From Planctomycetota bacterium (GTDB lineage: Bacteria; Planctomycetota; Planctomycetia; JALXBF01), in NCBI GenBank assembly GCA_026981825.1, contig JALSID010000115.1, positions 4,198-68,197 on the forward strand: 64,000 nt of DNA, read 5' to 3'. Both the position numbers and the translations under genes were made by a program. The notes beneath the pieces are model-generated. The model ran no database searches and was not told the DNA's origin. It was given only the letters and a program-made list of their open reading frames with translations. Below, piece after piece: positions 6,001 through 56,896 of this stretch (position 1 is its first letter; each line of letters begins with the position of its first letter).

Positions 6001-9000
6001 CCTGACGGTTGCGGCTGTAACCCGGTCCGTGCAGCTCTTCGCCGTGCAGGTAGTCGTTGCCCGCCTCGCCGACCAGGATCTCCTGGCGAAGATTGCCGTA
6101 CAGCCAATCGCCGCCGGGGCCACCGTGCAACTCGTCGCCACGCAAGCCCGTTTCCTGGGCGGCGTCGGTTGTCGGAGCGTAAGCGAACAGCGTATCGATC
6201 CCGCCGCCCCCCCAAAGGCGCTGGCCGGCGAGAGTCTCGATGGTGGCCGTCGCCCCGCTGTACTCGGGCAAGTCCTCACCGTCGCTGTTCTTGGCCTCGA
6301 AATTGGACAGCGTGACGCTCTGTGTCTGATAGCCCGAGCCGACAAAGATGCCGATCTTGGTCTTGCCCACGCGACGGGCTTCGAGCGCGAGGTCCAAGTT
6401 CGCCGCGATCAGAGCTGCTTGAATCGCTGCGTTGATGTCGGCCACCAGGTCGTCGATGCTCTGGTTGTCGGTCAACCTCGCACTCTTCCCCACGTCCACG
6501 GACAAACTCGTCGAACCGACCATCACATCGAACTTGAGTGTGCCCGGCGCAAAGTTGGTAGTTGAAGTGGTGATCGCCGCTACGGTCTGACGTACCCCGC
6601 CGTCTCCGAAGAGCAAGTCATCGCCGGCATCGCCGTAGAGCTGATCAATACCGCCGTCGCCACGTAACACATCGTTGTTAGCACCACCGCGCAGAACGTC
6701 GTTTCCGTCCCCCCCTTCGATCCGGTCGTGGCCGATGCCGGCGTCGAGGTAGTCGTGCCCCCCATCGCCGAAGAGCCGGTCGTCATCGCCCCCGCCGAAC
6801 AGCCAATCGCCGTCATTGCCGCCATGGATGGTGTCGGCGCCGTCGGCGGAATCGCCCGGTACCGAGGCGCCGAAGACAAACCTCGGCGTGATCTGCGGCG
6901 GTGTGAATCCGGTCCGAAACCGCGCTTCGGTCGCCATCCAATCGTCCGGTGCCGCGAAGTTCTCCTGCTGCACCGCCGAATGCCGTGCGTCGGTCCAGAA
7001 ATCGGTTTCGGCGAATTCGGCAAAACCGCCCCAGATCACGTCGCGTCCGGCTCCGGCGTCGACATAATCATCGCCTAAGCCGCCCACAATCCAGTCGTCG
7101 CCCCCTAGACCGAAGACCTGGTCATCGCCGTCGCCCGCATCGATCACGTCGGCACCCCCACCGGCGTTAATGAAATCGTCGCCGGTTTGGCCGAGGATCC
7201 AGTCATGGCCCCCGCCAGTGACGATGCGGTCATCCCCTGGGCCACCTTCGACTGTATTCTCTCCGCCCGCGATGCGGATCTCATCGTCCCCCTCCTGCCC
7301 GAAGACTCGATCGTTCCCGAGGTTCAGCCGTATGACGTCGTTGCCGGCGCCCGCATACACCGTATGATCGCCCAGCGAACCGAAGATCCGGTCAGCGTGG
7401 TCCTCGCTGGACGTGCCCCTGGGAATGGGTTCCGTGGGATCGGTCCGGTCGCCGTAGATGGTCTCCACGTCACCGCCGCTGTTTTCGTCCGATAGCCCCA
7501 CACCAGGGAAGACGCCGGCGTAGATTCGATCGGCGCCCCATCCCCCGATAAGCGTGTCACTCCCCGGGCCGCCGGCCAGTTCGTCGCTTCCGGCCCCCCC
7601 GTCGATCTGGTCATCGCCTCTGCCTCCGTCGATCCGGTCGTCGCCCCCGCCGCCGAAGAGCAGATCGCTGAACGCCCCCCCGTCGATCCGGTCGTCCCCG
7701 TCGCCGCCGCGGATGTTATCGCCCCCTCGGCCGCCGAGGAGTTCGTCGTCCCCTGCGCCGCCGTCGATTACATCGTCATCCAGTCCACCATCGACGAAGT
7801 CATTGCCCGCTCCCGCGACGATCACGTCCTTTCCCGTCTGGCCCAGGATCCGGTCGTCACCGTCTTCGCCAAAGACCTGATCGTTGCCCCATCCGCCCTG
7901 GATCTGGTCACCGTCGGCGCCGCCGCGGATCACGTCATCGCCACGGCCACCGTCGATGATGTCGGCTCCGGAACCGCCATCGATCGTATCGTTCCCGCCT
8001 CCGGCGGTGATCATGTCGGCCCCGTCGCCGCCGGAGATCAGATCGGAGGATGGCCCGCCGGCGAGCTGATCGTTGCCCGCGCCCCCATTCAGCGTGGCCG
8101 GGCCGCCCCCAGCAACCAACACGTCGTCGCCCGGCCCCCCCACCAGCTCCACAGGCACGCTCACCCCCTCGTGAATGATGATCTGGTCGTTCCCAGCGCC
8201 GCCGTCCGCATAGATCCGATTGACGCCCGAAAAGGTCTGCCGGAGCCCGAAGGCCTCGACCACCACCTCATTAGGCGTGCTGCCGGGTAGTACGCGAAAC
8301 ACCTCGTCCCCGTCGCTGGTATCGCCATGGCTGCGCGCCACGGCGTTCGGGCCCATGTTCAGCGTCAAAAGGTCGCCGTTTTGGGACGCTAAAACTGGCG
8401 GCTCCACGTCGCAGAACGAGTGAGCCAAGTCGAAAATCGTAATCGAGGCCAACTCCTTGTGCGCATCGATGATGGTTAATTTAAAGAAGCCCAGCTTGAT
8501 TTGGATCTTCACAAAGGCGGCCAGGCTCGCCCGCAAACTTCCCGTCACGTCGAAGACGCACTGCACTCCCTGGCGCAGTCGATGGCCCAGCTCGTCCAGA
8601 TGGACTCTGCCACCGTCACTCGGGTCTGGGTCTACCAGGTCGAACCCCGCGTTGCCGAACAAACCACCGCCGGCACCCGCAAGAACCGTGGCAATCCCCA
8701 GATCCACGCCCAGGGCAGCATAGGCCGCAAAGCTGGCGAAAAAGTCGAGCTCGTTAATGTCGCGACCATCCACCGTATCGCGGATGTAGAAGCCATTGAG
8801 GAGGTTCCCCGCGTCGCCCGTTTCCACGGCCTGCCTTAATCCACGGGTGTCGAATCCAAACCGGAAACTCGCCGCTAATCCTGCCCGCGCATCGAAGTAG
8901 ATCGTCAAGAAGGGGGGAAACACGGGTATCGAGGGAATCGGAATCGACGTCGTTACGTTAAACGTGGGCAGGTTCAGCTTGATCAGATCAATGTCTTGGC

Positions 9001-12000
9001 CCAAGAGCAGCCGAAAAACGGACGTGGGTTTGTCAATGAACGGGAACGTTAAACCGCTCCCGTGCTGACTGGGAATGTTCCCCGCCTCGTCGAAGAACTC
9101 CCTGGCTGCCTCCTGCCCCGCCTTGTTCAGTTCCTCCTGCACCTGCCTCTTCAAATCCTCGTCTCTAATCTCGTTGCCACTAGCGTCCCTGGGCGTGAGT
9201 CCGCTCAGCGTTTCGTTGTTCAGGTCGTCGGTGGAAATCGTGAAACCGCCGATTGGAATGTCGCCAGTCGCGAGGTTTCGGGAAGCGTCCGCCAGCCGCG
9301 AGATGGAATGTAAGGCGCTAACAAATTGCGCCGAGGTCTCAACCGATCGCCGCACGGATTCGTTCGGCGCGAACTGCTTCGCCAGGGTCAGCACCGTCAC
9401 AGGGCTTTTGCTCAGATCCGAAATGATCGGGATCGGCGTCGTTAGGAAATCCACCACGGGCTTGATCGGGGCGAGAACCGAAGCGATCTTCTCAACGACC
9501 GGCCGCCCGAAGTTTGTGATGAGCTGCCCCGGATTGATCCGCACATTCTCGAAGGTCACGGAGGGCGTTCCGAGGAACTGCCCCGTCTTGGCCGCTGTAT
9601 CCACCTGGTCGAAGGTCCAATCGATGCCGAAGTCGGCCTTGATTTCCGGGAAGTTCGCATTAGCGCCAAAGCCAGCGACCAGGTCGAGGTTGACGTCAGC
9701 GTTGCCATCGAGCGTCGCCTTGATGCCAAGCCCTGCGAACTCGGATGTTGTCAGCCGCCCATCACCGCTCGGATCAACGAGGTCGATGGTGAATTCCCCC
9801 GTGAACGCGCTCGGATCGCCCGAATCATCGGACGCATCGATTCGGAGGAACCCCAACCTGCCGGTGGCCTTGAAGTCCGGGATGCGAGCGTCCAGCGTGA
9901 TCGACAGCTCTGGGATCTCGTTACCTTCTTTGTCTTTGTTCGATGTTCGGAAGTAGACACCCTGCGTCTTGCTGATCCCGACGCCCACGGTGAACGTGAA
10001 GCCGAGCTCGGTGGCCACCTTGCCGTCGAGTTCCAGGCCGAGGTTGTCCAAACCGATGTCGAAGCCGATCGGCACATCAAGCAGTGTGGCGTCGCGGCCA
10101 AGTTGCATGACGAACTGGACGTCCTCCGGTCTATTGGTGTCGGGCAGCCTGATGTCGTCCACGGTGATAACGCCGTCGCTGTTCATGTCTTTCAGCCAGC
10201 CCAGGTTGCCCGGGCCGAGGGCGTCGAACAAAGCCCGACGAACGGTGTCCTTGTCCCGCCGCACGTTGCGGGCAGCTAACGCTTCAAACTCGTCTCGGAC
10301 GGCATCGCGGATGTCCGCCAGGAAGCGCGCTGCATCGCGGAGACCTGTGCCGATCAAGGGCAGCTTGACCGCGGCGAATACCCCCTTGTCCAAGCCTGCC
10401 TCCAGAGCACGGAAGAATCCCTCCCAACCGTCACCGATCGCCCCCATGTCGGAGGCCACGTCGCCGATCTGTTCGATGATGCCACTGAAATCGGGCACGT
10501 CGATGGTCGCACGCGACGGGTCGGCAAGATCCACTGTGAGTTGAAAGACGTGGTCCAAGACGCCATCACCGTCGGTATCGCGGCGCGTCCTGGTGATGGG
10601 CGTGTCCTTGTTGGGTCCGAACACCGGCAGCGTTGCCTTCGCCGTTCCTGAGACGACCACATCGAGGATCTGCGGCGTGTTGCCAACGAACTCGTCGAGA
10701 TAGTACCGACGGTCCGCGGGGTCGTTGGCCAGATCGATCGTGAATGTCGCCGGATTCTCTCCGTTAGCGATGGTCACAGAACTGGCGATGTCATCCTTCG
10801 TACCCACCGTCCCATCGGCCCCGCTGTCAGGATGCACAAAGATTCCCAGCGGACCGACGGCCGCGCTGAACTCCACATCGCCGGCGGCCGCCCGAAGCCG
10901 CAGTTCGACGTTCGTCGTGTCCTTGATAAATGGCCGCAGTCGGCGATCCGCAAGGTCGATACCGAAGTCGAGATGTAACGTGGACCCGATGTCCAGTTGT
11001 AAGGGAGTCTCCCCCCGTACGTCGACGAAGCCTTTTACGAAGGGGTCGAAGTTGAGTTGCGCCTCGACACGCTCTTGGCTTTCCAGCGTTAAGTCAATTC
11101 CCAGGGCCGGACCGGTGGTGAGCTCCAACGTTAACTGACTGTCGGTGAGCCCGAAGGCCGACTCGATACGATCTTCGAGTTCCTGGAGCGTGCCGGCTGG
11201 GTTGTCGCGCAGGTTCGATAACAGCTCGATGAACTGCCCGTCAATGCCGACCAGTTGTGGGACCGACCGGTTGAGGATCGGCAGCTTGCGACCAAGCAGG
11301 CGGGTACTGTCGAGGTTCTCCAGGTCGGCTAAGAACCGGTCCGCCACCCCCTGGAGGCCGTCAACGATGGTTTGAAAATCCAGATCCGGCAAAGTGCCCA
11401 GGTTCTCAAACCCGGTGGTTGTGACATGCACCGTCCCCGGGAACTGCCAACTCGCCACCACCTTTGCGTCCTCATCCACCCTGAGGCCACCGATGTTGCC
11501 TGCCACCGAAACCGGCAACACCAGGTTGGCTGAACCGGTAACGTTCACGGAGTTGCCTGAGAGCGTATGGTCGGCAAGCTCGCGCAGCCCGATGCGTCCG
11601 TCTCCATCGCGGTCTTCCAGCGTCAGGCTGGCGCTGAGCCCCCCTTGCAGGGATCCCCCGGTGACGGTGACGCCGAGGCCGAAGTCCTGGGGGCCGAAGC
11701 GGGCCGAGCCATCGATGTCCTCGGCCGTTAGCGTGACCGTCCCCTCCAACAAGGCACTCCGGAAGAACAATCGGTCCGAAAGAGCGCCCACCCGGAGCGG
11801 CGGGCTGGTCAGTTTGGGCTCGCTATCGCCGTCTTCATCGCCACCAACCAGTCCCAGAGCAAACCCGGCTAGTGAACCATTGGTCGCGCTCACGGCAAAC
11901 GTGTGGTCTCCCGTCGTCTTGTCTTCCAGTTCAATGAGCGTGCGATGGATCTCGTTCGAATCGGTCGTTTCGCTCCCCTTGCGATCCTGGAACACGAGCC

Positions 12001-15000
12001 GAGCACTGAACTTGGCATTGCCGTCACGATCGCTCGGAGCAGCCGCGTTCAGGTCCACAATCAGGTCAGACAGGGTGGTCACGTCTTTCGTCGGGTCGCT
12101 CGGATCGGAGCGCCGCTGGAAATCGACGTTGAACGTCGTCCCATCTCGGAGCGTGATCGTCAGGTCGTCTCCATCGGCTATCGGAATACCGCGTCCGTCG
12201 TTCAATTCGCGTAGGAAGGTCCTCTCGGTGACGGCCGGCGGCTTACTCAGGTCTAATGCAACGGTCAACGAGCCGCCCACTTCGGCCTGCGTGGTTAGCG
12301 TGCTGTCGGTCTGGAAGTCAGAGATCTTGCCCAAATCGACGTCCTCTCCGATTGGGATCGCAACACCGAACAGCACCGTGTTGAAGTCAATGGTGTAGGT
12401 GAGCGCCGGATCGTCTCTGGTGCCGTCACCGTTCAGGTCATCGGTGTAGCTCAGGTCGGTTATGACCCCCGGTAGCAGATCAGCCAGTTCCTGGGCGGTG
12501 GCGAAGCTCAAACCGGAGGCCTCCTGACCGGGGTCGAACCCGAGCGGTTCACCTCCGCTGATCGTGAGCGACCTGACCGTGTCGCTGCCGCCGATGAAGA
12601 CGATCCGGCCGCCATGTAATCCCGCCTTCAGAGCATGTGTGTCGATTCCAACCGCATCGAGCGCCGGACCTAGTGACGCGTTCAGATCATTCACCAGGGC
12701 CCGCGCGTCCTCGTTGTCGGCTAGTTGATCAGGGGTAAGCGTGACATTCACGCTGGTCTGGCCGTTGAGTGTCAGCGTCAGGCCCACGCCCTGGCCTTGG
12801 CCTGGGACACCGTTGGCCGGGACCAACCCGCGCGCCACCAAACGCACGCTGGAAATCGGGTCGAGGAGCGTTTCTTTTAGCGCCTGTTGAAAGTCGAGCA
12901 GATCGCCCAGATCACCAGAGTCGGCAAAGGGCAAATCGACGTTGAGCCAACCGCTGGCACGCAGCGTGTCAAGGGCCAGCCCGGCCTGCCCGAACAACCC
13001 CACCACTGTCTGCGCATCCAGGGTGCGGAATGGCTCGAACCGATGGAAGTTCCGCGCCGTGTAGCGAGCTGTCGTCGTGCTGTCAAAATCCGAAGGCTGC
13101 ACGAACACAGGAAGCTGATCGTCGAAGACGTTGGGATCGACCATCTCGAACGTCCCACCGGTGATGCTCGCTTCCCCCATGAATGCGCTGATGTCGAAGC
13201 CCACCTCTAGCGAACCCTTCGTCGCTACCGTTAAGCTCGACACGGGCAGTTCTTGCAATTCGCCCGCCGTGATCCGCGTTGTCTCCGTGTCCGGATTAGC
13301 CACATTCACGTCCACTTGCGCGTTAAACTTGACGCTCGAATCGCCGGTAAGTGGCGTCACGGAGACCTCAAGGAATCCCAAGCGTCCATCAAAACCGACC
13401 GAACTATTGACATTCAAACCGGTACTCAATGACACGTTGTCGAGGAAAAATGCGTCCGCGCCGGTCCGGTTCCCGTCTAGGCCAAAATCGAACTTGAGCG
13501 AAAAACTCGGCGCCACGTCGATCGTTACGTCCCCTACCGGGGCGATACCAAAGTCGAATAGTTGTTGGAAAGGCAACGGGATGCGGACATCTGGAAGGGT
13601 AGCGGACCATGTGACCTTGAATACGTCGTCTTCGAACTTCACGGCCTGGTCGGAGTCGCCCAGAGCGTCGTTGAGCCTGCTGGCCAGTTCCCTGGCGGTC
13701 GCGGGCTGACCCGGTTGCAGACCAGCGAAGTATGTTTGCGCCGAGGCGAGTAGTTTCTGGCGCAACAATTTGGGCAGGTCGACCAGATCGGCGATCGATG
13801 GGTTCAAAACCGAGGTGCTGAACTCTTCTGTTTCGAACAAACCGGTGAGCCATTCAGCGAGCGACGTAAGCCCCTGTAGAATCGCCGACTGATCCTCGGT
13901 GCCGAGTACATCGGGTGCGGGCGCGGTGATACCGTTCAGCTTCTCGACCAGGTCGGCGTCGATCGGACTGGCGGGATCACCGGCAGGCAACCCTTTTGCA
14001 CTGCGAAAGGCTTCGATCGCGTGCTGCGTGTTCGGGCCTAGGATGCCGTCCGGATCGAGAGGCTTCCCGCCAAGGCCCCTATAGCCGAGTTGCCGCAGCC
14101 GCTGCTGGGTCGCGAGGATCGAACGCGGACCCGTCCCTGCCGTGACCGCGCCGGGACCTTGTGCGCTAAAACCCCGACGCACGTCGATGCGCAGCCGCTC
14201 GGTTCTCCTCCGCCCGTTGTGTTCAAATCCGACGGTCACAAAAATTACTCCCTGGAATCCCGCTGCCGCCGGGTCGGCGTCCAGTCGGGCAGTGGGGTTC
14301 CCCGCATCCGGATCGATGGCTTCGGGAACGAAGTAGAAGCGGCCCGTTTCAGCGAACGATTGGCCCTCGATGCGGTCCGAAAGGATGATCTTGCCGAGCG
14401 TCTTCTTCGTACCGCCGGGGAGGACACGCACCACGCGGAACTCACCCGGCCGCCGCGTGCTTTCGACCAGATCGGCCCCCTCAACGCCAAGCAATTGGAA
14501 ATTCTGACGACCAGGGTTGGCCCCTGACGTGTTGACGGCGATCACGTCTCCGGTGCGTCCGCGCGCTCTGGCGGCTAGTTCCAACCGCACATTGTCGATC
14601 GCGATCTCGGAGGTAACCTCGCCGGAGCCGCTGATGACCTCAAACGTCACCGTGTGGACCTGACCGCGCAGCGACTCGGGGATCTCCAGCCGGTACCCCT
14701 GGAAGTCAGCATCCGTGGCGTCCAACCGCAGCCCGCCGCCGTCGATGGCCGCATCGCCTATCCGAACTTGGAGCCTGTCCGCATCGCTCGCCTGCAGGCG
14801 GCGCATCTCGAACCGCACGGCCACTGCATCAGGGGGCACATAGAGCTGGCTGTGGGTGAGCTTGGTGTGGCGGGCACTCAGGACCGCAAATCGATCGGCG
14901 TCGGGCGGCGCCGTAAATCGCGTGGCGTTGCCGGACCCTGTGGAGCGGGCAGGATCAAAACCGACCTGCGCGCCGAATGCACCGGTCCCGTGATCCGACC

Positions 15001-18061: not shown

Positions 18062-18080
18062 GGCGCCGGCTTCTTCCAAG

Positions 18081-18155
18081 TCGGGGCGCCGGGATTCGAA
18101 CCCGGGACCTCTAGAACCCCATTCTAGCGCGCTAGCCAGGCTGCGCTACGCCCCG
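18081..18155 (-). tRNA. tRNA-Pro (anticodon GGG), 75 nt, no encoded CCA
   Basis: The reverse complement reads CGGGGCG-TA-GCGC-AGCCTGGCTA-GCGC-G-CTAGA-ATGGGGT-TCTAG-AGGTC-CCGGG-TTCGAAT-CCCGG-CGCCCCG-A. It has a 7-bp acceptor stem, D arm, a 5-bp anticodon stem with a 7-nt loop (U33, anticodon GGG, G37), a GGTTCGAATCC T-loop, and discriminator A. Confidence 0.85.
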
Positions 18156-47302: not shown

Positions 47303-48736
47303 TCAGGTTGTAGCGCAGTGCCGAGCAGGTCGGGTTGCCGAGCCGCCCCCGCCGTTTCTGGACTTGTCGGGCAGCAGCCCGAGTCGACGCATCTTCTTGT
47401 ACAGCGTGGCGCGGTTGATCCCCAGGGCGCGCGCCGTGCGCTGCTTGTTCCAATTGTTCGCCTCCAGAGCCGCCAGGATCAGGCGGCGTTCCGGATCCTG
47501 AAGAGCCGCCTTCAGGTTGTTCGGAGCAGGCTCCGGAGCCTGGACGCTGATCCCTGGAACCGCGCCACGAACTGTCGGAGGCAGGTCTTCGGGCTCGATG
47601 TACTCGGATCGGGTCAGTACCACGGCGCGTTCAATCGCGTTTTCCAGCTCCCGAATGTTGCCCGGCCAACTGTAGCACTGCAACAGATCCATCGCCTGCG
47701 GCGTAAATCCTCGCACGACCTTGCCTGTTTCCTCCCTGTACTTCTTGAGAAAGTGCTCGGCCAGAAGCGGAATGTCGGCGCGTCGCTCGCGCAGGGGTGG
47801 CAATTGGATGTTGATTACATTGATCCTGTAGTACAGGTCCTGACGGAACTTGCCTTCGGCCACGAGCTCCTCCAGGTTCTGATTCGTGGCCAGGATCACG
47901 CGCGCGTCCACGCGGATCGTCTCTTGCCCCCCGAGCGGCTCGAACTCCATATCTTGCAACACGCGGAGCAATTTCACCTGCAGGGCCGGAGATGCCGTGG
48001 CAATCTCGTCGAGAAAAACCGTGCCACCGTCCGCAAGCTCGAACTTCCCCTTGCGATCGGTGACCGCACCAGTGAACGCCCCGGCCTTATGACCGAAGAG
48101 CTCGCTCTCCAGCAGGGTCTCCGGCAGGGCGCCGCAACAAACCTCAATGAATGGCCCGTCACGCCTCTGACTGAGCCGGTGAATCGCTCGCGCCGTGAGG
48201 CTCTTGCCCGTACCGCTCTCGCCCGTGATCAGCACCGTTGTCCGGGTGTCCGCCACTGCTTCGATAAGCTCGTACACCTGGAGCATGCGTGCGTCGCGGC
48301 CGATGATGGCATCGAGACTGTAGCGTTGCTCGAGTTGCTTCTTCAGCCGACGGTTCTCCTTTTTCAGCGAGCGACGGGCGAGCGCACGATCCAGAGCGAT
48401 CTTGAGCTCTTCCTCAAAGACCGGCTTCACCAGATAGTCCTCGGCGCCCCGTCGAATTGCCTCGACCGCGTTCTCGACGGTGCCGTAGCCCGTCACCAGG
48501 ATGACAGAAACATCAGAATAGTGTTCCCGCAGCCAGTCCAGGAGGTCAAAGCCGTCGCCGTCCGGCAATTCGGTCTCCACAAAAACGATATCGAAGTCGC
48601 CGTTGCAACATTTCTCCCTAGCTTCAGCGATCGAACCACTGCGGCTGACGTCGAAACCTTGCTCCTCCAGATAGCTCGCCAGAGGATTCACAAACGAAGC
48701 ATCACTGTCGACGATCAGGACGGAGTGATTTGCCAT
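47303..48736 (-). CDS. Sigma-54-dependent response regulator (NtrC family): receiver, AAA+ sigma-54 activator and Fis-type HTH domains
   Basis: Receiver domain (VLIVDSD...DIVFVETELPDGDG...K). Sigma-54 interaction domain (GESGTGKSLTARAIH, ESELFGHKAGAFTGA, GNIRELEN). C-terminal HTH (QRTARALGINRATLYKKMRRLG). Confidence 0.9.
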   Translation of the reverse strand: MANHSVLIVDSDASFVNPLASYLEEQGFDVSRSGSIAEAREKCCNGDFDIVFVETELPDGDGFDLLDWLREHYSDVSVILVTGYGTVENAVEAIRRGAEDYLVKPVFEEELKIALDRALARRSLKKENRRLKKQLEQRYSLDAIIGRDARMLQVYELIEAVADTRTTVLITGESGTGKSLTARAIHRLSQRRDGPFIEVCCGALPETLLESELFGHKAGAFTGAVTDRKGKFELADGGTVFLDEIATASPALQVKLLRVLQDMEFEPLGGQETIRVDARVILATNQNLEELVAEGKFRQDLYYRINVINIQLPPLRERRADIPLLAEHFLKKYREETGKVVRGFTPQAMDLLQCYSWPGNIRELENAIERAVVLTRSEYIEPEDLPPTVRGAVPGISVQAPEPAPNNLKAALQDPERRLILAALEANNWNKQRTARALGINRATLYKKMRRLGLLPDKSRNGGGGSATRPARHCATT

Positions 48737-49228: not shown

Positions 49229-50641
49229 TTAACGCTCGAGCTGGTTAGGTACCGGCTTGATCGAGGCCTTGTGCTCCTCTGCGACCCGGGTCAGGCGACG
49301 GACGATATCGGGATGCCTCGGGGCCACGTCGAAGTTCTCGCCCGGGTCCACTTCGACGTTGTAGAGCTCCGGTATCTCGTGCACCTCTCTTCGGGGCCCG
49401 ATGCCGTACGATCCCTGCGTTATGAAGTGTGCTTTCCAGGCACCGACCCGCACGGCGTACAGCTCCTCTTGTCGCCAATAGAACACCCGGTCGCGGGGAC
49501 TCTTGTCCATTTTTCCGAGCAGGACCGGGGATAAATCGTAGCCATCCAGCACCCGATCTTTGGGGAGAGGCACGCCGGCCAGGGAGCAGAACGTGGGCAG
49601 TAAGTCCAGCACCGAGCCCATCCCCGTCTGGATCCCGGGGCGGACATGCCCGGGCCACCAGAAGATGCCCGGCACCCGCATCCCGCCTTCGTATGTTGTC
49701 CCCTTACCGTTGCGAAGTAATCCTGCGGATCCGCCGTGCGTGCCGAAGGGAAGCCAGGGACCGTTGTCGGAGGTGAACACCACGAGTGTTTGCTCAGCCA
49801 GGCCCAGCTCTTGAAGCGTCTGCAGGATTGCCCCCACTCCGGCGTCGATCTCTTCGACGGCGTCTCCATACAGGCCTCGTTTACTTCGGCCGAAGAACTG
49901 CTTGCTTGCGAACAGGGGAATATGTGGCATGTTGTGAGCGAGGTACACAAAAAATGGCTGGTGCCGGTGCTTTCGGATGAAGTCGATGGCTCGTGCCACG
50001 TAGCGTCTCGTAATCGTTCGCTGATCGACGGGACGTTCGATGATGCTCGTTCCGTCCAGCAGCGGCACGTTGAACTGTTGGAATGGGGCCATGTAGTGCG
50101 GATCCATGAGCGCCCGCTGACGGTAGTTCGGAAAACCTTTCCTGGCGTCCATGTCGTTCGAGTATGGGATCCCGTAGTAGTAGTCGAAACCATGCGCTGT
50201 GGGGAGGTACGGGGGCAAGTGTCCGAGATGCCATTTGCCAATCGCAGCCGTCGCGTATCCTGCCCCCTTTAGAAGCTCTGCAATTGTCACCTCTTCGGCG
50301 GGCAGTCCCCCTTTAGAGTCCGGGAACAAGACGCGACGACGGTCGGACATCATACCGCTACGGACCGGCACTCGCCCGGTAAGTAATGCCGCCCGACTGG
50401 GCGTGCAGACGGGGGCACCACAGTAGAAGCTCGTCCACTTTTGCCCTTCCGCGGCCATCTGGTCCAGATGAGGTGTACGGATGGTGGGGTGACCATAACA
50501 GCCAAGGTCGCCATAGCCCAGGTCGTCGCAGAAGATGACCACGAAGTTCGGTCTTTCCGCTGCCGGCGAGCGGTTCGGTGCACCAATTGCCAGCACTAGC
50601 CCGGCTACAGCCAACCATACGCGACCAGTTGTTCGCTTCAT
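49229..50641 (-). CDS. Secreted arylsulfatase (formylglycine-dependent sulfatase family)
   Basis: Signal peptide MKRTTGRVWLAVAGLVLAIGA. PNFVVIFCDDLGYGDLGCYG. CTPSRAALLTGR (the C-x-P-x-R formylglycine motif). Downstream GKWHLG. Confidence 0.9.
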   Translation of the reverse strand: MKRTTGRVWLAVAGLVLAIGAPNRSPAAERPNFVVIFCDDLGYGDLGCYGHPTIRTPHLDQMAAEGQKWTSFYCGAPVCTPSRAALLTGRVPVRSGMMSDRRRVLFPDSKGGLPAEEVTIAELLKGAGYATAAIGKWHLGHLPPYLPTAHGFDYYYGIPYSNDMDARKGFPNYRQRALMDPHYMAPFQQFNVPLLDGTSIIERPVDQRTITRRYVARAIDFIRKHRHQPFFVYLAHNMPHIPLFASKQFFGRSKRGLYGDAVEEIDAGVGAILQTLQELGLAEQTLVVFTSDNGPWLPFGTHGGSAGLLRNGKGTTYEGGMRVPGIFWWPGHVRPGIQTGMGSVLDLLPTFCSLAGVPLPKDRVLDGYDLSPVLLGKMDKSPRDRVFYWRQEELYAVRVGAWKAHFITQGSYGIGPRREVHEIPELYNVEVDPGENFDVAPRHPDIVRRLTRVAEEHKASIKPVPNQLER

Positions 50642-51305
50642 GGGTGCTTCCTTCCCAAGCTCCGTCATAACTGGGAGTAGCCGCCGCCCGAAACCGCGCC
50701 TTAGCTATGACGGCTCCTCCCTCACGCGGTGGCCGCACCGCGGTGTCTCGCAAACCAAGCCTCGCCGCCCGTGTCCCCACCGGACGGCGCTTCCACTGGT
50801 CTATCGCCAGACCAATGGTAGCACGGCCTGGCCAGGGCACGGTCCCCGAGCGCAAACGAAACCGACCCCGCGCGGCCGCACGGCGGCCGGGACCGTCAAG
50901 GAAGATCGGACTTCCCGTCACGCCGCGCATAGACCTGCAGCGCTCCCCTATTGCTGGCTGCGCAGCAGATGGCCGCTGCGAGCTCGGCGAGTCAAACTGA
51001 TCGGGCCGATGATGGTTTGCCGCTATCCGGAAGGTGGTTTCGGTCGATCACCGCGACGTCCCCGCGGCGGTTCCGGTCCGCCACCACCCACGCCGGCCAA
51101 GCCCTGCGGCGAACCCGCGGGCGGATCACACTACCGATGTTCCGCCGCCGGAGCAGAAGACTTCGCCGCCCACCCCGAGCCGTCCCCGCTCGCTTTTGCA
51201 AGCGTTTGCGGATCGCGGAAGCGCCGGGAGATGGAGAGCGCCCGTCCGCAGGACACCATCGCCGCTGGCAACCGCACCGCGACGTCGCCTACGCCGACAC
51301 TCAGC

Positions 51306-51737
51306 CTACCAGCGCCAGATGTCGACCCCTCCGAAGACGTTGGGGCGTGTGCTGAACAGCGGCCGCGCGCCGCGATAGGCATCCTGCCCACCGAAGATGT
51401 TCCTGCGCGTGCTGAATAGCGGACTGCTTCCCCGGTACACGTCGTATCCACGGAAGATGTTCGGCCTGGTGCTGAACAGCGGCCGCACACCCCGGTAGGC
51501 GTCCTGGCCACCAAAAATGTTCCGCCGCGTGCTGTAAAGCAGTCGCCCGCCACGATAAACATCGAAGCCACCAAAGATGTTGGGCCGGGTGCTGTAGAGG
51601 AGACGGCTTCCCTGGTAGACGTCCACCCCGCCGAACACGTTCGGTCGCGAAGATGTGAACTGGGCAAACGACTGTTCCGAGGAGGCAACAAAGAACGCCA
51701 CCGTCAACGCTGCAGGTGCTACCCATCTGGCGAGCAT
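51306..51737 (-). CDS. Small secreted protein (about 143 aa) made of six tandem 18-aa repeats (consensus STRPNIFGGxDVYRGxRLLY)
   Basis: Signal peptide MLARWVAPAALTVAFFVASSEQSFAQ. Then repeats ...SSRPNVFGGVDVYQGSRLLY/STRPNIFGGFDVYRGGRLLY/STRRNIFGGQDAYRGVRPLF/STRPNIFRGYDVYRGSSPLF/STRRNIFGGQDAYRGARPLF/STRPNVFGGVDIWRW. 54-nt periodicity is visible in the DNA at 51320-51660. Confidence 0.6.
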   Translation of the reverse strand: MLARWVAPAALTVAFFVASSEQSFAQFTSSRPNVFGGVDVYQGSRLLYSTRPNIFGGFDVYRGGRLLYSTRRNIFGGQDAYRGVRPLFSTRPNIFRGYDVYRGSSPLFSTRRNIFGGQDAYRGARPLFSTRPNVFGGVDIWRW

Positions 51738-52230
51738 GACTTGCCCTCCACTCTCGCGTGAACCTCGCTTCAAACCGCGCCCAAGACGGGCCCTCTCATT
51801 AGAGCTATACCGGTGACCGGTTGGATTTCGGACACCCGAAACGACCTGGCCTTTCTCAGGAAAAGCCGGCTTGCAACCTCCGCCGAATGCGTTACATTCC
51901 CCACGGCCAGCTCGCGCGCCGTCAGCGTGTGTGCGCGATTATAGCCGAATCCTCAACGGCAGCGCAGACCATCGCACCGCTTCGCCGCAACGGTCCGGTC
52001 CCTCTGGGCGCGGCCAGCCGCGGTCCGGCTACGAGGGTTCTCGCTCTGATGCCCGGCGTGGTCCGGAGCCGGTCTCGACCTACTATCCCGATCTCGCGAC
52101 GAGGACCTTTTCGGCTCGCTGCGGTGCCGTTGACCGATCCGGTCATGGCCAGTAGCCTGGCAGCAACGCAGCTCACGGCAGATCGCCGCTGCAGGAATTC
52201 CCGTTAGGTGAGCGACGAGCAGGAAGCAGT

Positions 52231-53286
52231 ATGGAGACAGGACGACCACGCCGGTTGCATGTGCGGCACGAGGGAAACCGCGAGCACCTTGAGTACGCAC
52301 GGCAGGTGCTCGAAACCGAAGCCGCCGCTCTGCGAACCGTCCGGGATCGGCTGGACGAATCGTTCGCAGCGGCGGTGAATCTTTTGCTCACTTGCAAGGG
52401 ATCGGTCATTGTGACCGGCATGGGGAAAGCCGGCATTGTGGGCCAGAAGCTAGCCGCGACCCTTGCTTCCACCGGTACACGGGCGCATCCGTTGCATCCG
52501 GCCGAAGCGGTGCACGGTGACCTGGGCCGGATCGGTGCCGAGGACATCGTGCTTGCCCTGTCGTACAGTGGCGAAACCGAGGAGGTGGTGCGTCTTGTGG
52601 ATCCTGTGCGGCAGATCGGGGCGAAGCTGATCGCGATCACGGGCCGGGGCCAGTCCACCCTGGCGTGCGCCGCCGACGTAGCGATCGTGCTCGGCCCGCT
52701 CAACGAAGCCTGCCCCCTTGGGCTGGCGCCGAGCACATCCACCACCGCGATGATGGCTGTAGGCGATGCCCTTGCCTTCGCCGTTAGCAAGGCGCGGCGG
52801 TTTGAACCAGAACAGTTCGCCGCGTTTCACCCTGCGGGCAGCCTCGGGAAACTATCCCAGTCGGTTCGAAACCTGATGCGGGTTGGAACTGAGGTGCGGT
52901 TGGCCCACACGGGACGAACCGTGCGCGAGGCGCTGATCGAAGCCCACCGGCCCGGCCGCCGTACCGGCGCAATGCTGATTGTCGACGAACGCGGCGTGCT
53001 GCAGGGCATCTTCACCGATGGCGACCTGGTTCGGCTGCTCGGACGAACCGACCTGGACGATCCGCTTGAGCTTCCGATCGAGCACGTGATGACCAGGAAT
53101 CCGGCGACGATCGGGGAATCGGCCACCGTGCGCGAGGCGGTGGAACGGCTGTCACGGGGGAAGTTCAGCCAGTTGCCCGTTCTCGATGAACACGGCCGCC
53201 CGATAGGCATTCTTGACATCACCGACGTGATCACGCTCATCCCAGACCTGGACCGTGAGCAAGACTCGACGGCCAAAGCTGCCTGA
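52231..53286 (+). CDS. kdsD: Arabinose-5-phosphate isomerase (SIS domain plus tandem CBS domains), KdsD/KpsF/GutQ family
   Basis: SIS motif VIVTGMGKAGIVGQKLAATLASTGT and C-terminal CBS pair; followed 15 nt later by kdsC. Confidence 0.85.
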   Translation: METGRPRRLHVRHEGNREHLEYARQVLETEAAALRTVRDRLDESFAAAVNLLLTCKGSVIVTGMGKAGIVGQKLAATLASTGTRAHPLHPAEAVHGDLGRIGAEDIVLALSYSGETEEVVRLVDPVRQIGAKLIAITGRGQSTLACAADVAIVLGPLNEACPLGLAPSTSTTAMMAVGDALAFAVSKARRFEPEQFAAFHPAGSLGKLSQSVRNLMRVGTEVRLAHTGRTVREALIEAHRPGRRTGAMLIVDERGVLQGIFTDGDLVRLLGRTDLDDPLELPIEHVMTRNPATIGESATVREAVERLSRGKFSQLPVLDEHGRPIGILDITDVITLIPDLDREQDSTAKAA

Positions 53287-53300
53287 ACGGGGACCGACTC

Positions 53301-53834
53301 ATGGCGGCGGACGAGAAGGAACTGCTCGAAAAAGCGCGGGCAATCGAGCTGCTGGTCCTCGACGTGGACGGGGTCTTGACCACAGGCGACATTCTCGTAG
53401 GCGACGACGGCCGCGAGTGGAAACAGTTCTACGTGCGTGACGGGGCCGCTCTGGCCTACTGGCACCGTATGGGCAAGAAGTCCGCGATTCTGAGCGGACG
53501 GATCAGCGAGGCCGTGTACCACCGGGCAGCCGAGCTAGGCGTCCACGAAGTGGTGCAAGGTCGGCTTGACAAGGGACGGGCAGTCGAAGAACTTGCCACA
53601 AGGATGGGCGTACCGCTGGAGCGGGTCTGCTTCATCGGGGATGACCTGGCCGACCTGAGCGCGCTGGCCCGAGTGGGCCTGGCCGCGGCCGTGGCCGATG
53701 CGGTAGCGGAGGTGAAAAGCAAAGCAGATTATGTCACAGAACTGCCGGGAGGGAAAGGAGCAGTCCGGGAACTGGTCGAGTTCCTGCTTCGTACCCAGGG
53801 GGTCTGGGAACAGGTGCTTGAGATCTACGACTAG
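53301..53834 (+). CDS. kdsC: 3-deoxy-D-manno-octulosonate 8-phosphate phosphatase (HAD superfamily, KdsC)
   Basis: HAD motif I LVLDVDGVLTTGD, about 177 aa, typical KdsC size and synteny after kdsD. Confidence 0.8.
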   Translation: MAADEKELLEKARAIELLVLDVDGVLTTGDILVGDDGREWKQFYVRDGAALAYWHRMGKKSAILSGRISEAVYHRAAELGVHEVVQGRLDKGRAVEELATRMGVPLERVCFIGDDLADLSALARVGLAAAVADAVAEVKSKADYVTELPGGKGAVRELVEFLLRTQGVWEQVLEIYD

Positions 53835-53890: not shown

Positions 53891-56800
53891 GTGGTCCGTC
53901 GCGTCGTCACGGCAGCCATTGCATTCACCGCCCTGATGTTTTTGTACGCCCTCTACCTCGCGGCGTTCCGCCGCTTCTGGGCGCTGCAAAAACTGCCCAC
54001 CGACCTTCTGCCCCCTACGAGCGCACCTCGGTACACGGATCTGGTCAACACCAAGGAAGACATCGCCACCGAGGTGGCCGCAGAGGTCTTCGGTGGTGAC
54101 GCCTGGCAAACGCGGGCAGTGATTAGCCTGTACTGGGCCGAACAGGGGTTCTTTCTGTATGCGAACGAGTACGCGTTCCCGACCAAACAGAGCATGACCC
54201 TGGCACCGGTCAGTGTCGTGCGGAAACGCACGCTCGAGGGGGGTCACGTGGAGTATCTTGTGCTGCAGGCGGAAAAGGCATCGATTACGTTTGATCGGCC
54301 CATCAGCCTAACCGACTTTTCAGCCGCTCGCCCGGTCCGGGCGCAGGCGTCCGGTAACGTGGTCGTCGGCTGGAACCGCGGCACGCCGGACGAAAACGAC
54401 GACGTGACTGCTTATCTGACCGACCTGGTCTTCGACCGCAATCGCAAGCTTGTCTGGACATCGGGCGAGCTCAGGGTGACGAGCGACACGATGTCGCTCA
54501 ACGGCCACGGGGGGCGGATCACGCTCCGCGGCGGGCAAGACGGCCGGCTGGAAGTGGAATCCCTGCAGGTAAGCCGACAAGTACGCGTGGAAGGGCTTCT
54601 CAGCGATCGAAACCGCAGCCTGCTCGTAGCCACCGAAAGAGGTGGCTCGCGTTCCAAACCCAGCAAGGGGGGCAGAGAACAGTATCTGGCGATCGAGTGT
54701 CGTGGGCCACTTGTTCTCGATGCCGCTGGTCTGCAGGCGATCTTCCACAGGGACGTGGTCGTCACGGTTCAAACTCCTGGGCTATCACCTGACGTAGTGC
54801 GAGCCGATGAGCTCCGGCTAGCATTTGCGCGCGTGACCGAACCATCGGAAGGTTCGGCTGCGGCGGTCTCGAACCGGCTTACGTTGAAGCTTGCTGAGGC
54901 GGTCGGTCAGCCGGTGGTGGTCAGTTCCCCCACACGTCGTCTGACGGCCAGCGCGACCAACATGGCCTACGACATGACCACGCGGGTGCTCAGCCTTGAG
55001 TCGCCTTCGGGAGTGCAGGCGTCCTATGGGGCGCTGGACATTCGCGTTGCTCGGCTCAGACTGCAGATTGGCAGCCCAGGCGCGTTGCAGGGGGAAGCCC
55101 CGGGTCCTGGAGAACTGGTGGGAAAAGGGAAAGCGGGCGCGGATTCAGAGGGAATCCGCGCCTCCTGGCAAGAAAGCGCCCGCCTTGAGCTTGTGGACGG
55201 ACGACATGTCGTCACGCTCACGGGCAATGTGCGGGTCGAGCAGCCCGGGCGTGGCGAGATGGTGGCCCAGCGATCGGTCCGGCTCTGGTTCAACGGTTCG
55301 GCGAAGCCTACCGCGGAGAAGAGTTTTTCCCTTCCTGAGCGGATCGAAGCGACCGGCGGTGTGGTTCTCACCTCCGACGATTTGGTCTTGCGCACGGAAC
55401 TCCTGATCGCTCGTTTTACACCGGCCAAACGAAGGGACTCAGACGCCCCCGAAAAAAATTCCCATGAGGACGCGCGTGCCAGCCCCGAGTCTGCGAGTCC
55501 GAGCTTCGTCTTCTGCCAGGACGTGGAACGGGGGCCGGTGATCAGGATCCGGGCCGTTACGCCGGCTGTTTCACCGGCAGATTCCGAAGTACCCCCCGGA
55601 CCGGCCGACGGTACACCGCCTGATGGAGGCGAAGAGCACCACCGGCCCGGCCGCCGGATCGAGATCACAGCGGGCCGCATCCGCGCCGATATCGAGGCCG
55701 GCCCTGAGAAATTCGTAGCTCGCGAAATGTGGGCAGACGAGGCCGTATCAATCGTGGAGCGGCTCTCCGAAGAACAGTCCGGCCTCACCATACACGGCGA
55801 CAATGTACACGCCCGCGGGCTCGACGGTAGCTACTTCTTCGAAATCACCGGCCAGCCTGCCCTGGTGAGCACCGACACCCTGACGCTCCACGGCAAGCTC
55901 ATCGGCCTCGATCAGGCAACGCAGGTCGCCTGGGTACGGGGGGAAGGCAACGCTGTCTTCCGCACCGATGTTGCCCTTTCCCTGGACGAACAGGCCGGCG
56001 GGAACGTGCAGATCGTCTGGTCCCGCGACATGTTCTTCGATGGCCTGGTGGCGGAGTTCACGGGCGCGGTCCGGGTGGAACAGGGTCAGACGGTGCTCAC
56101 CTGCGAGCGGCTCGAGGCGCACTTGAGCGAACGGATCCAGCTCGCACGCCGGCCCCAGCAGGCTGCCCCCCCAATCCTCGCCCGGCTCATCGCCACAGGA
56201 GCAGTAGAACTACGTCGCCAGAGCGATCAGGGCATTACGAGGATCGAAGGCCCCCGCGTCGTCTATTCACGTCAGGACAATAAGATCGTCGTGGCCGGCC
56301 CAGGCCGGTTCTGGTCCAGCGGCAGGGGGTCGCCGGCAGTCCTTCGTCCCGCCGCTCCGCCCCCCCAGGATCCGCGCTGGAAGGGTACTCTGGTGCTGTT
56401 CGATCGGCTCATGGACGTCGACCAGGACAAAGGCCTGGTCCGCTTCGTCGGCCGCGTGCGTGTGTGGCACGCGCCGATCGATGGTCCGGATCGCGAGTTC
56501 TCCCATGCGGCACCACCGTCCGAGGCCATGTTCGTCGGCTGTGACCAACTCGAGCTGCTCACGACCAAAACCACCGGAGTGGCGTCCGTAGGCGAGACGG
56601 GCTCGATCCAGAAGCTCATCGCGCGTGGCAATGCCAAGATCCATGGCCAGGGCTTCTACGCTTACGCCGATGTCCTCAAATACGACACCACGGGCGGCGA
56701 AGAAAAGATCATCGCCGAGGCGAGCGAAACCGGTTTTGCTACCTTCTACCGCCAAACCGTCCCCGGACGCCGCCCCGACGTGCTACGCGCCCGAAAGATC

Positions 56801-56896
56801 ACCTACTGGCCCGTCACGGGGGAGTTCCGCCAGGAAGGTGGCATCATGCTAAATGTCCGGGAAAACGGCCCCCTCCGCCAACGAACCCGCCGCTGA
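53891..56896 (+). CDS. 1001-aa membrane-anchored protein, candidate expanded LptC/LptA (OstA-N-like) lipopolysaccharide transport protein
   Basis: N-terminal TM anchor (VVTAAIAFTALMFLYALYLAAF). Recurrent LptA-like '(T)GNV/GNA...' beta-jellyroll blocks (LTGNVRVEQPG, GEGNAVFRTD, ARGNAKIHGQGFYAYAD). Position immediately after kdsD-kdsC matches the conserved kdsD-kdsC-lptC-lptA order. The family assignment is an inference. Confidence 0.4.
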   Translation: MVRRVVTAAIAFTALMFLYALYLAAFRRFWALQKLPTDLLPPTSAPRYTDLVNTKEDIATEVAAEVFGGDAWQTRAVISLYWAEQGFFLYANEYAFPTKQSMTLAPVSVVRKRTLEGGHVEYLVLQAEKASITFDRPISLTDFSAARPVRAQASGNVVVGWNRGTPDENDDVTAYLTDLVFDRNRKLVWTSGELRVTSDTMSLNGHGGRITLRGGQDGRLEVESLQVSRQVRVEGLLSDRNRSLLVATERGGSRSKPSKGGREQYLAIECRGPLVLDAAGLQAIFHRDVVVTVQTPGLSPDVVRADELRLAFARVTEPSEGSAAAVSNRLTLKLAEAVGQPVVVSSPTRRLTASATNMAYDMTTRVLSLESPSGVQASYGALDIRVARLRLQIGSPGALQGEAPGPGELVGKGKAGADSEGIRASWQESARLELVDGRHVVTLTGNVRVEQPGRGEMVAQRSVRLWFNGSAKPTAEKSFSLPERIEATGGVVLTSDDLVLRTELLIARFTPAKRRDSDAPEKNSHEDARASPESASPSFVFCQDVERGPVIRIRAVTPAVSPADSEVPPGPADGTPPDGGEEHHRPGRRIEITAGRIRADIEAGPEKFVAREMWADEAVSIVERLSEEQSGLTIHGDNVHARGLDGSYFFEITGQPALVSTDTLTLHGKLIGLDQATQVAWVRGEGNAVFRTDVALSLDEQAGGNVQIVWSRDMFFDGLVAEFTGAVRVEQGQTVLTCERLEAHLSERIQLARRPQQAAPPILARLIATGAVELRRQSDQGITRIEGPRVVYSRQDNKIVVAGPGRFWSSGRGSPAVLRPAAPPPQDPRWKGTLVLFDRLMDVDQDKGLVRFVGRVRVWHAPIDGPDREFSHAAPPSEAMFVGCDQLELLTTKTTGVASVGETGSIQKLIARGNAKIHGQGFYAYADVLKYDTTGGEEKIIAEASETGFATFYRQTVPGRRPDVLRARKITYWPVTGEFRQEGGIMLNVRENGPLRQRTRR

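Follow-up and report, generated by a model that had tools for sequence, protein, structure and literature searches.

The 64-kb stretch of planctomycete DNA analyzed here (the window; contig JALSID010000115.1, positions 4,198 to 68,197) carries at 51306-51737 a complete gene for a small protein that has a signal-peptide-like N-terminus followed by repeats only. The initial annotation had located this open reading frame (ORF) exactly and had called its product a small secreted repeat protein; we correct its placement to the minus strand. The features of the gene, all on that strand, are as follows.

51306-51737, minus: repeat-protein gene, complete, 143 codons and a TAG stop (51306-51308), with the ATG at 51735-51737
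51744-51749, minus: Shine-Dalgarno-like GGAGGG, 6 nt 5′ of the ATG, as read from the sequence
51660-51737, minus: putative signal-peptide-like segment, residues 1-26, MLARWVAPAALTVAFFVASSEQSFAQ
51600-51659, minus: repeat unit 1, residues 27-46, FTSSRPNVFGGVDVYQGSRL
51540-51599, minus: repeat unit 2, residues 47-66, LYSTRPNIFGGFDVYRGGRL
51480-51539, minus: repeat unit 3, residues 67-86, LYSTRRNIFGGQDAYRGVRP, closest to unit 5 (80% in nucleotides, 90% in amino acids)
51420-51479, minus: repeat unit 4, residues 87-106, LFSTRPNIFRGYDVYRGSSP
51360-51419, minus: repeat unit 5, residues 107-126, LFSTRRNIFGGQDAYRGARP
51309-51359, minus: repeat unit 6, truncated, residues 127-143, LFSTRPNVFGGVDIWRW, with the C-terminus directly after the last predicted strand

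Coding status of the repeat gene

The 143-aa gene was called identically in two public assemblies, with the ATG as its start; an alternative TTG start at 51771-51773 would add 12 residues. The GC content at codon positions 1/2/3 was 0.57/0.54/0.75, resembling that of the neighboring genes, and the excess at the third position (GC3) was missing from alternative frames overlapping the gene. When the six copies of the repeat were compared with each other, they differed at codon positions 1/2/3 with frequencies of 0.26/0.23/0.59, and the differing codon pairs were synonymous in 110 cases and non-synonymous in 100. This concentration of differences at the third position implies selection on the frame at the protein level. 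Despite DNA identities of only 52-80% between the units, the motif has been kept; therefore, the copies are old and have been maintained by selection acting on the protein. We regard it as very probable that the product is a genuine, exported repeat protein and represents a new family.

Repeat units and N-terminal segment

The repeat period is 20 aa (60 nt), with 5.75 copies, that is, five full units and a final unit of 17 aa. Tandem Repeats Finder reported periods of 60 and 120 nt (scores 188 and 298) and the array was the strongest tandem repeat in the window, where no further copies of the repeat were found. The only other tandem repeat scoring at least 80 there was a 27-nt array of 3.2 copies at 7692-7777. 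The repeats had been described as 18 aa (54 nt) long, which is incorrect, and the consensus string given with that length itself had 20 letters. The count of six units holds, with the qualification that the sixth is truncated.

The six motif copies in the query are spaced exactly 20 residues apart and follow the consensus [ST][ST]RP-N-[IV]-F-G-G-x-D. S, R, N, F, the second G and D are invariant across all six units. To call F-G-G and Y-R-G invariant, as the initial annotation did, is too strong: unit 4 has F-R-G, unit 1 has Y-Q-G and unit 6 has W-R-W.

Residues 1-26 comprise a basic n-region, a 14-residue hydrophobic core and S-F-A ahead of the likely cleavage site, and are probably a Sec-type signal peptide. 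Residues 3-17 formed a separate low-confidence helix in the AlphaFold2 model described below (predicted local distance difference test, pLDDT, about 60), and equivalent N-terminal hydrophobic segments were present in relatives. The mature protein would have ~117 residues and 13.4 kDa, with an isoelectric point of 11.4 and a net charge of +12; it contains 18 Arg, no Lys and no Cys. We rejected a lipoprotein because the protein has no Cys, and Tat export because the n-region has no twin-Arg motif. Disordered repeats of the FG-nucleoporin kind were rejected in view of the predicted folded structure, the signal peptide and the occurrence of the family outside planctomycetes.

A phylum-spanning family of PNIFGG repeats

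The initial annotation did not recognize the repeat family, and our searches agreed with it. The query had no Pfam or NCBIfam match (no Pfam match at E ≤ 10), and none was found for about 40 relatives; PADLOC did not match the repeat proteins, a profile search of PDB sequences gave no match, and a full-text search of the literature found no mention of the motif. RTX, pentapeptide, YD/Rhs, MORN and choline-binding repeats were rejected, as none of their Pfam models matched at E ≤ 10. In their source records the relatives are named merely "hypothetical protein".

A profile built from double repeats of the query was run against 1.84 billion cluster representatives. It matched 193 of them at E ≤ 1e-3, of which 62 also passed E ≤ 1e-10; the best E was 5e-31, and reciprocal profile matches likewise reached 5e-31. 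A word-indexed homology search, a method unsuited to short repeats, gave no match with the protein and one with a 60-row repeat profile. Scans of GTDB genomes, metagenomes and viral contigs yielded 9 loci, 142 relatives and 8 loci, respectively; the metagenome locus scan was run with a tighter alignment, two looser ones being too divergent. The GTDB loci were in Thermoguttaceae (two), Caenimonas, Gemmatimonadetes, Thermodesulfobacteriota, Binatia, Holophagaceae, a Deltaproteobacteria metagenome-assembled genome (MAG) and a Clostridia MAG. The metagenomes in which the family occurs come from marine, freshwater and soil habitats.

We defined the PNIFGG repeat family, which is not a curated one, as small proteins with at least two motif copies 16-21 residues apart, and the query belongs to it. 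The family motif [ST][ST]xP-N-[IV]-F-G-G-x-[DN] was present in all relatives, all of them small proteins, with a spacing of 20 residues in 193 cases, 21 in 94, 16 in 43 and 19 in 42. Each protein had at least 2 copies and at most 6; two apparent exceptions above six look like assembly or counting artefacts. The PNIFGG repeat is an undescribed, rare and phylum-spanning family. It is new to the databases checked, and its predicted fold belongs to a familiar class. The conserved motif resembles a structural signature of the fold, and the variable surface looks lineage-specific. Naming the family would annotate a few hundred "hypothetical" proteins.

Four architectures were found. The first, which includes the query, has a Sec signal and ends right after the last unit; many relatives terminate within a few residues of the final motif. 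The second has a signal and two Cys in the first and last units. The third comprises leaderless His/Asp-rich forms with conserved C-terminal tails, and the fourth comprises fusions to a multi-pass membrane domain.

Several members of these groups deserve mention. The tails of the leaderless forms read "...DPLxHxxxYxMPxLxL" in one subgroup and "...DFHSKFFK" in another, and other leaderless members end in acidic-aromatic runs such as "DFDFDIDF" (members with such tails: P0019, P0031, P0039, P0048, P0107 and P0109; P0017, P0029 and L007). Four fused members (P0026, P0037, P0045 and P0128) have 330-412 aa, of which the N-terminal part is a multi-pass membrane domain and the C-terminal part carries 3-5 PNIFGG repeats; another membrane-fused member (L108:1618-2856) has as neighbors a zinc-ribbon (DZR) protein, a PHP-domain protein and a hexapeptide transferase. 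The P0006 cluster (L014:2085-2342), a signal-peptide member with three repeats in 85 aa, is common in marine metagenomes, and one of its sequences occurred on 149 contigs, Tara Oceans surface samples among them. Of the eight IMG/VR contigs (L094-L101), seven had a low GC content (36-38%) and encoded two-repeat signal-peptide proteins of ~75 aa. The eighth, L101, had at least 6 repeats with a Cys-paired first unit, and its reading runs off the end of the DNA.

Predicted fold and paired cysteines

A β-solenoid or an amyloid-like structure had been proposed for the protein. AlphaFold2 with a 30-sequence alignment instead predicted, with confidence, an antiparallel closed barrel (mean pLDDT 88.9, with 95-97 in the repeats; predicted template modeling score 0.78), and all five alignment-based models scored 86-89. 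Residues 27-143 were all-β in the model. In each unit, a strand of 8 residues (xLLYSTRP) is predicted to lead through a 5-residue loop (N-I/V-F-G-G) into a second strand of 5 residues (xDxYx), which is followed by a tight two-residue G-x turn. From this model, it is rather likely that the six hairpins close into one 12-stranded up-and-down antiparallel barrel.

In such a barrel, the six conserved PN(I/V)FGG loops would all lie at one rim, the interior would be solidly packed, and the conserved loop motif would have a structural role. The inward face would consist of positions -7, -5, -3, -1, +5, +7 and +9 (numbered from the Asn of the motif), mostly hydrophobic. The polar outward face would carry a conserved cross-strand pair of Arg(-2) and Asp(+6) together with Tyr(+8). 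The first of these two faces is probably the interior because it is more hydrophobic and bears the Cys pairs of relatives.

These Cys residues provide a check on the model, in which -3 is the cross-strand partner of +7, and -5 that of +9, on either side of the NIFGG loop. In 795 distinct units of relatives, Cys was found almost only at -3 (102), +7 (104), -5 (19) and +9 (17), and Cys at -3 and +7 occurred together in 97 of 109 units (Fisher p = 3e-109). The sites coincide with the cross-strand partners of the model and thus give independent support for the hairpin register. The paired Cys would look like disulfide staples across a hydrogen-bonded hairpin, and the -3/+7 pairing is hard to reconcile with a curli-type β-arch. 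Cys-paired units were the first repeat (38) or the last repeat (59) of a protein and never an internal one. This terminal position fits a stapled seam of a closed barrel and would also fit the free edges of an open sheet; ring closure therefore rests on the prediction and the six-repeat ceiling.

Genomic neighborhood

The neighboring genes referred to below are as follows.

47303-48736: NtrC-type sigma-54 activator
49229-50668: sulfatase, neighbor of the repeat gene on its 3′ side
52231-53286: SIS+CBS KdsD-like gene, divergent from the repeat gene
53301-53834: HAD KdsC-like gene
53891-56896, plus: 1001-aa protein with an LptD_N/LptA-type domain, after the KdsD-like and KdsC-like genes

The sulfatase and the kdsD/kdsC/Lpt-like genes are present as the initial annotation had stated; their arrangement is not conserved in the relatives. 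The NtrC-type regulator is also nearby, and no sigma-54-type promoter in the upstream region links it to the repeat gene: matches to TGGCAC-N5-TTGC in the window were no commoner than chance, and none lay between 51738 and 52230. No sigma-70-like promoter was found in the flanks of the gene. The gene-free flanks are 50669-51305 (~640 nt to the sulfatase downstream) and 51738-52230 (493 nt to the KdsD-like gene); these stretches had no Rfam match and no called gene, and the only terminator-like hairpin was a weak one downstream (50878-50863, minus strand). The 1001-aa protein is unusually large for an LptA/LptC-like component, and its sole Pfam match, to an LptD_N/LptA-type domain at residues 721-809, is weak (E = 4e-8). 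Elsewhere in the window, there is a single tRNA-Pro (GGG) gene at 18080-18155 on the minus strand.

Neighbors were compared by naive ORF calling and all-against-all BLAST in 9 and then 89 loci. Recurrent neighbors came only from near-identical genomes or were Ser/Thr kinases, an AAA+ ATPase and pentapeptide proteins; the sulfatase, NtrC-type, KdsD-like, KdsC-like and LptD_N-domain neighbors of the query did not recur in relatives. Sulfatase adjacency was otherwise seen only in an Arg-rich relative (L017), whose neighboring sulfatases are 30-33% identical to that of the window and lie on the opposite strand. With no linking promoter and no conserved neighbor, the neighbors do not explain the function.

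Leaderless relatives and dynamin-like GTPases

A different kind of neighborhood was found for leaderless relatives, with annotated contigs and tblastn. It had been missed by the all-against-all BLAST because ORF calling failed in a locus of 70% GC. The loci are as follows.

L103:127-5710, dynamin-linked locus
L012:~7880-13424, dynamin-linked locus
L013:~7900-13457, dynamin-linked locus
L105:482-6411, dynamin-linked locus

In one subgroup, the repeat protein is followed in an operon by an M48 peptidase and then at least two dynamin-like GTPases (Dynamin_N). This operon was found in three taxa (Holophagaceae, the Deltaproteobacteria MAG and one further organism) with 45-74% identity. In a second subgroup, three Dynamin_N genes are followed, after 2 nt, by the repeat gene. 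The GTPases match the PADLOC models LeoA/LeoBC (Eleos) at 1e-11 to 1e-22; LeoA, B and C are bacterial dynamins (PMC4159319). No paper on a link between PNIFGG repeats and dynamin operons was found. This link offers a concrete handle on poorly understood bacterial systems of membrane remodeling or defense.

The query lies outside these leaderless groups: it has the signal-peptide-like N-terminus and no adjoining GTPase genes. A tblastn search with the GTPases and the M48 peptidase gave no match in the window, and no dynamin or M48 genes were found in any signal-peptide locus.

Proposed function and alternatives

Our best explanation overall, to which we assign a probability of roughly 0.5, is that the gene encodes a Sec-exported, strongly cationic barrel of six hairpins that may bind polyanions. 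The protein would most likely be exported by the Sec pathway, and its Arg/Tyr-rich exterior would make it a periplasmic or extracellular multivalent binder, with sulfated glycans, lipopolysaccharide (LPS) and anionic membrane surfaces as candidate ligands. The polyanion-binding role by itself is a tentative proposal, which we would give a low likelihood. For now, with its function only proposed, the practical value of this gene is modest.

Several points weigh against this explanation. The structure is a prediction, and without an alignment AlphaFold2 scored poorly (pLDDT 66; four of the five models were close to 40). The program may close repeat arrays too readily, and the Cys pairs prove the hairpin but not the closure of the ring. 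An identical monomeric barrel of 12 strands is out of reach for relatives that have 2-5 repeats. A Foldseek search of the PDB gave no significant match (best E 0.05, TM ≤ 0.3), so that the likeness to known barrels is topological and not one of family. Which face is inside, and how the barrel is filled, was deduced from the strand register only, and the export assignment comes from features of the N-terminal sequence. No neighbor was conserved among the signal-peptide relatives, and sulfatase adjacency in two loci could be chance if the genome is rich in sulfatases.

A possible but rather unlikely alternative is a barrel that binds membranes or lipids by analogy with Tubby, scramblase or LURP-one-related proteins, in which a ring of Ile and Phe from the NIFGG loops would dock on the membrane and the Arg surface would bind anionic lipids or LPS. 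The operons of leaderless relatives with an M48 peptidase and membrane-remodeling dynamin-like GTPases, in at least three taxa, are in line with it, as are the fusions to a multi-pass membrane domain (P0026 and the three others above), the strongly positive and aromatic-rich composition of the query and its divergent position next to the KdsD/KdsC/LptD_N-domain cluster. That cluster is, as noted, not conserved, and the dynamin and M48 genes are absent from the window and from the signal-peptide loci. Moreover, the central helix that is the hallmark of the Tubby-like fold is lacking, and sequence matches to the Tub, LOR and Scramblase families were not found. A broader version, which we consider speculative, is that the PNIFGG proteins are a new and ancient family of soluble hairpin-amplified barrels acting as membrane- or lipid-surface adaptors. 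In the cytoplasm, members would be partners of dynamin-like GTPases, with Eleos-like defense or membrane repair as possible settings, and the exported members, the query included, would act on the envelope. If true, this would be a bacterial functional analogue of the Tubby/scramblase-type barrels and a natural model of how a barrel originates from one hairpin.

A functional amyloid or β-solenoid subunit, with 20-residue strand-turn-strand rungs stacked in parallel into a curli-like fiber or surface layer, is unlikely. The protein is secreted and has CsgA-like imperfect repeats of ~20 residues rich in Gly, Asn and aromatics; the repeat number varies from 2 to 6 within the family, as expected for open-ended stacks, and the low-confidence single-sequence model gave weak matches to β-helices and to the CsgA fibril (E ≥ 0.56). 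The confident alignment-based model is, however, antiparallel and closed. Strands in a β-arch are about 10 Å apart, and the Cys at -3/+7 and -5/+9 fit hydrogen-bonded neighbors in a hairpin instead. No protein was clearly above six repeats, the net charge of +12 disfavors self-stacking, Pfam gave no curli match, and no csg- or fap-like genes were found in the neighborhood in the window. The amyloid-like proposal of the initial annotation therefore did not hold up.

It is very unlikely that the protein is a polyprotein or multi-core precursor cut into six ~20-residue peptides, either antimicrobial or like ribosomally synthesized and post-translationally modified peptides (RiPPs). The near-identical units have basic residues (STRR, STRP) at their borders and are cationic and aromatic, like many membrane-active peptides, and in one leaderless subfamily the N-terminus is leader-like and an M48 peptidase is encoded nearby. 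However, no maturation enzyme, dedicated protease or transporter adjoins the query or the other signal-peptide members, and a Sec signal is atypical of RiPP leaders. In addition, the whole array is confidently predicted as one domain, and disulfide staples at the termini only would suit a folded domain and not released peptides.

More improbable still is an integral 12-stranded outer-membrane β-barrel that arose by recent hairpin amplification. The signal peptide and the aromatic C-terminus (...VDIWRW), which is loosely β-signal-like in its W-R-W, would agree with it. Against it, the predicted strands of 5 and 8 residues are too short to span a membrane, the outer-face positions, inferred as R, S/T, R, D and Y, would not face lipid, and the mature protein has just 117 residues. 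Many relatives have no signal peptide, and many end in ...DCR or ...KKR, with no aromatic residue at the terminus.

The last alternative, that the tandem repeat is non-coding DNA or that the true gene lies on the other strand, is effectively refuted: the window is GC-rich (63%) with numerous spurious ORFs, and one assembly's gene caller did report an opposite-strand 279-aa ORF at a contig end (L002), but codon-position asymmetry and GC3 favor only the 143-aa minus-strand frame, and protein-level relatives occur across many phyla at GC contents of 36-71%. The opposite-strand ORF (window 50535-51419, plus strand; L002:8319-9158) overlaps the 3′ end of the repeat gene. Its flat GC content (0.67/0.69/0.66) and its absence from the calls of the longer contig suggest that it is spurious.

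Comparison with known systems

The interest of this protein is moderate, higher for specialists in protein evolution and bacterial dynamins and lower for this locus, and its closest likenesses are to known barrels and repeat proteins. With the Tubby-like barrels (1i7e; the LURP-one-related DUF567 protein At5g01750, 2q4m; scramblases) the query would share a closed 12-stranded antiparallel barrel, as predicted by the model. In those proteins a hydrophobic helix threads the barrel, whereas the only helix of the query is at residues 3-17 and is absent from leaderless relatives. Unlike the query, they are not built of near-identical 20-residue repeats. Identity with them is 10%, Foldseek does not recover them, and the Tub, LOR and Scramblase Pfam models matched neither the query (E ≤ 10) nor 30 family members (E ≤ 0.01).

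The curli subunit CsgA resembles the query in its Sec export, its size of about 13 kDa and its five or six imperfect ~20-residue repeats of two strands each, rich in Gly, Asn, Ser and aromatics. CsgA has the motif S-x5-Q-x-G-x-G-N-x-A-x3-Q, forms a parallel β-solenoid and needs csgB/E/F/G. The query differs in its motif, in its antiparallel and closed predicted topology, in the hairpin-fitting Cys of its relatives and in the lack of csg/fap-like genes nearby.

The RTX β-roll is similar in its Gly-Gly-x-Asp turn motif, and its period of 18 residues per turn is close to the 20 of the query. The query, however, has one GG per 20 residues, lacks the second Gly of GGxGxD, and has predicted strands that are antiparallel; we found no Pfam HemolysinCabind match, no type I secretion genes nearby and no C-terminal signal. 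Soluble hairpin modules (choline-binding/cell-wall, YD/Rhs and MORN-type) form open superhelices or large shells and not a small closed barrel.

Outer-membrane protein barrels (the 12-stranded KdgM, NanC and NalP) and de novo 12-strand barrels are likewise barrels made from a repeated hairpin. An origin by hairpin repetition has been proposed for the outer-membrane barrels (PMC6340704, PMC6193526). The strands of the query are too short and too polar for that class, and its repeats are plain in the sequence, which is not so in outer-membrane proteins. If the barrel prediction holds, the query would be a natural protein in which six recognizable copies of one β-hairpin close into a barrel. Such an intermediate has been postulated for the origin of β-barrels and is otherwise known mainly from designed proteins.
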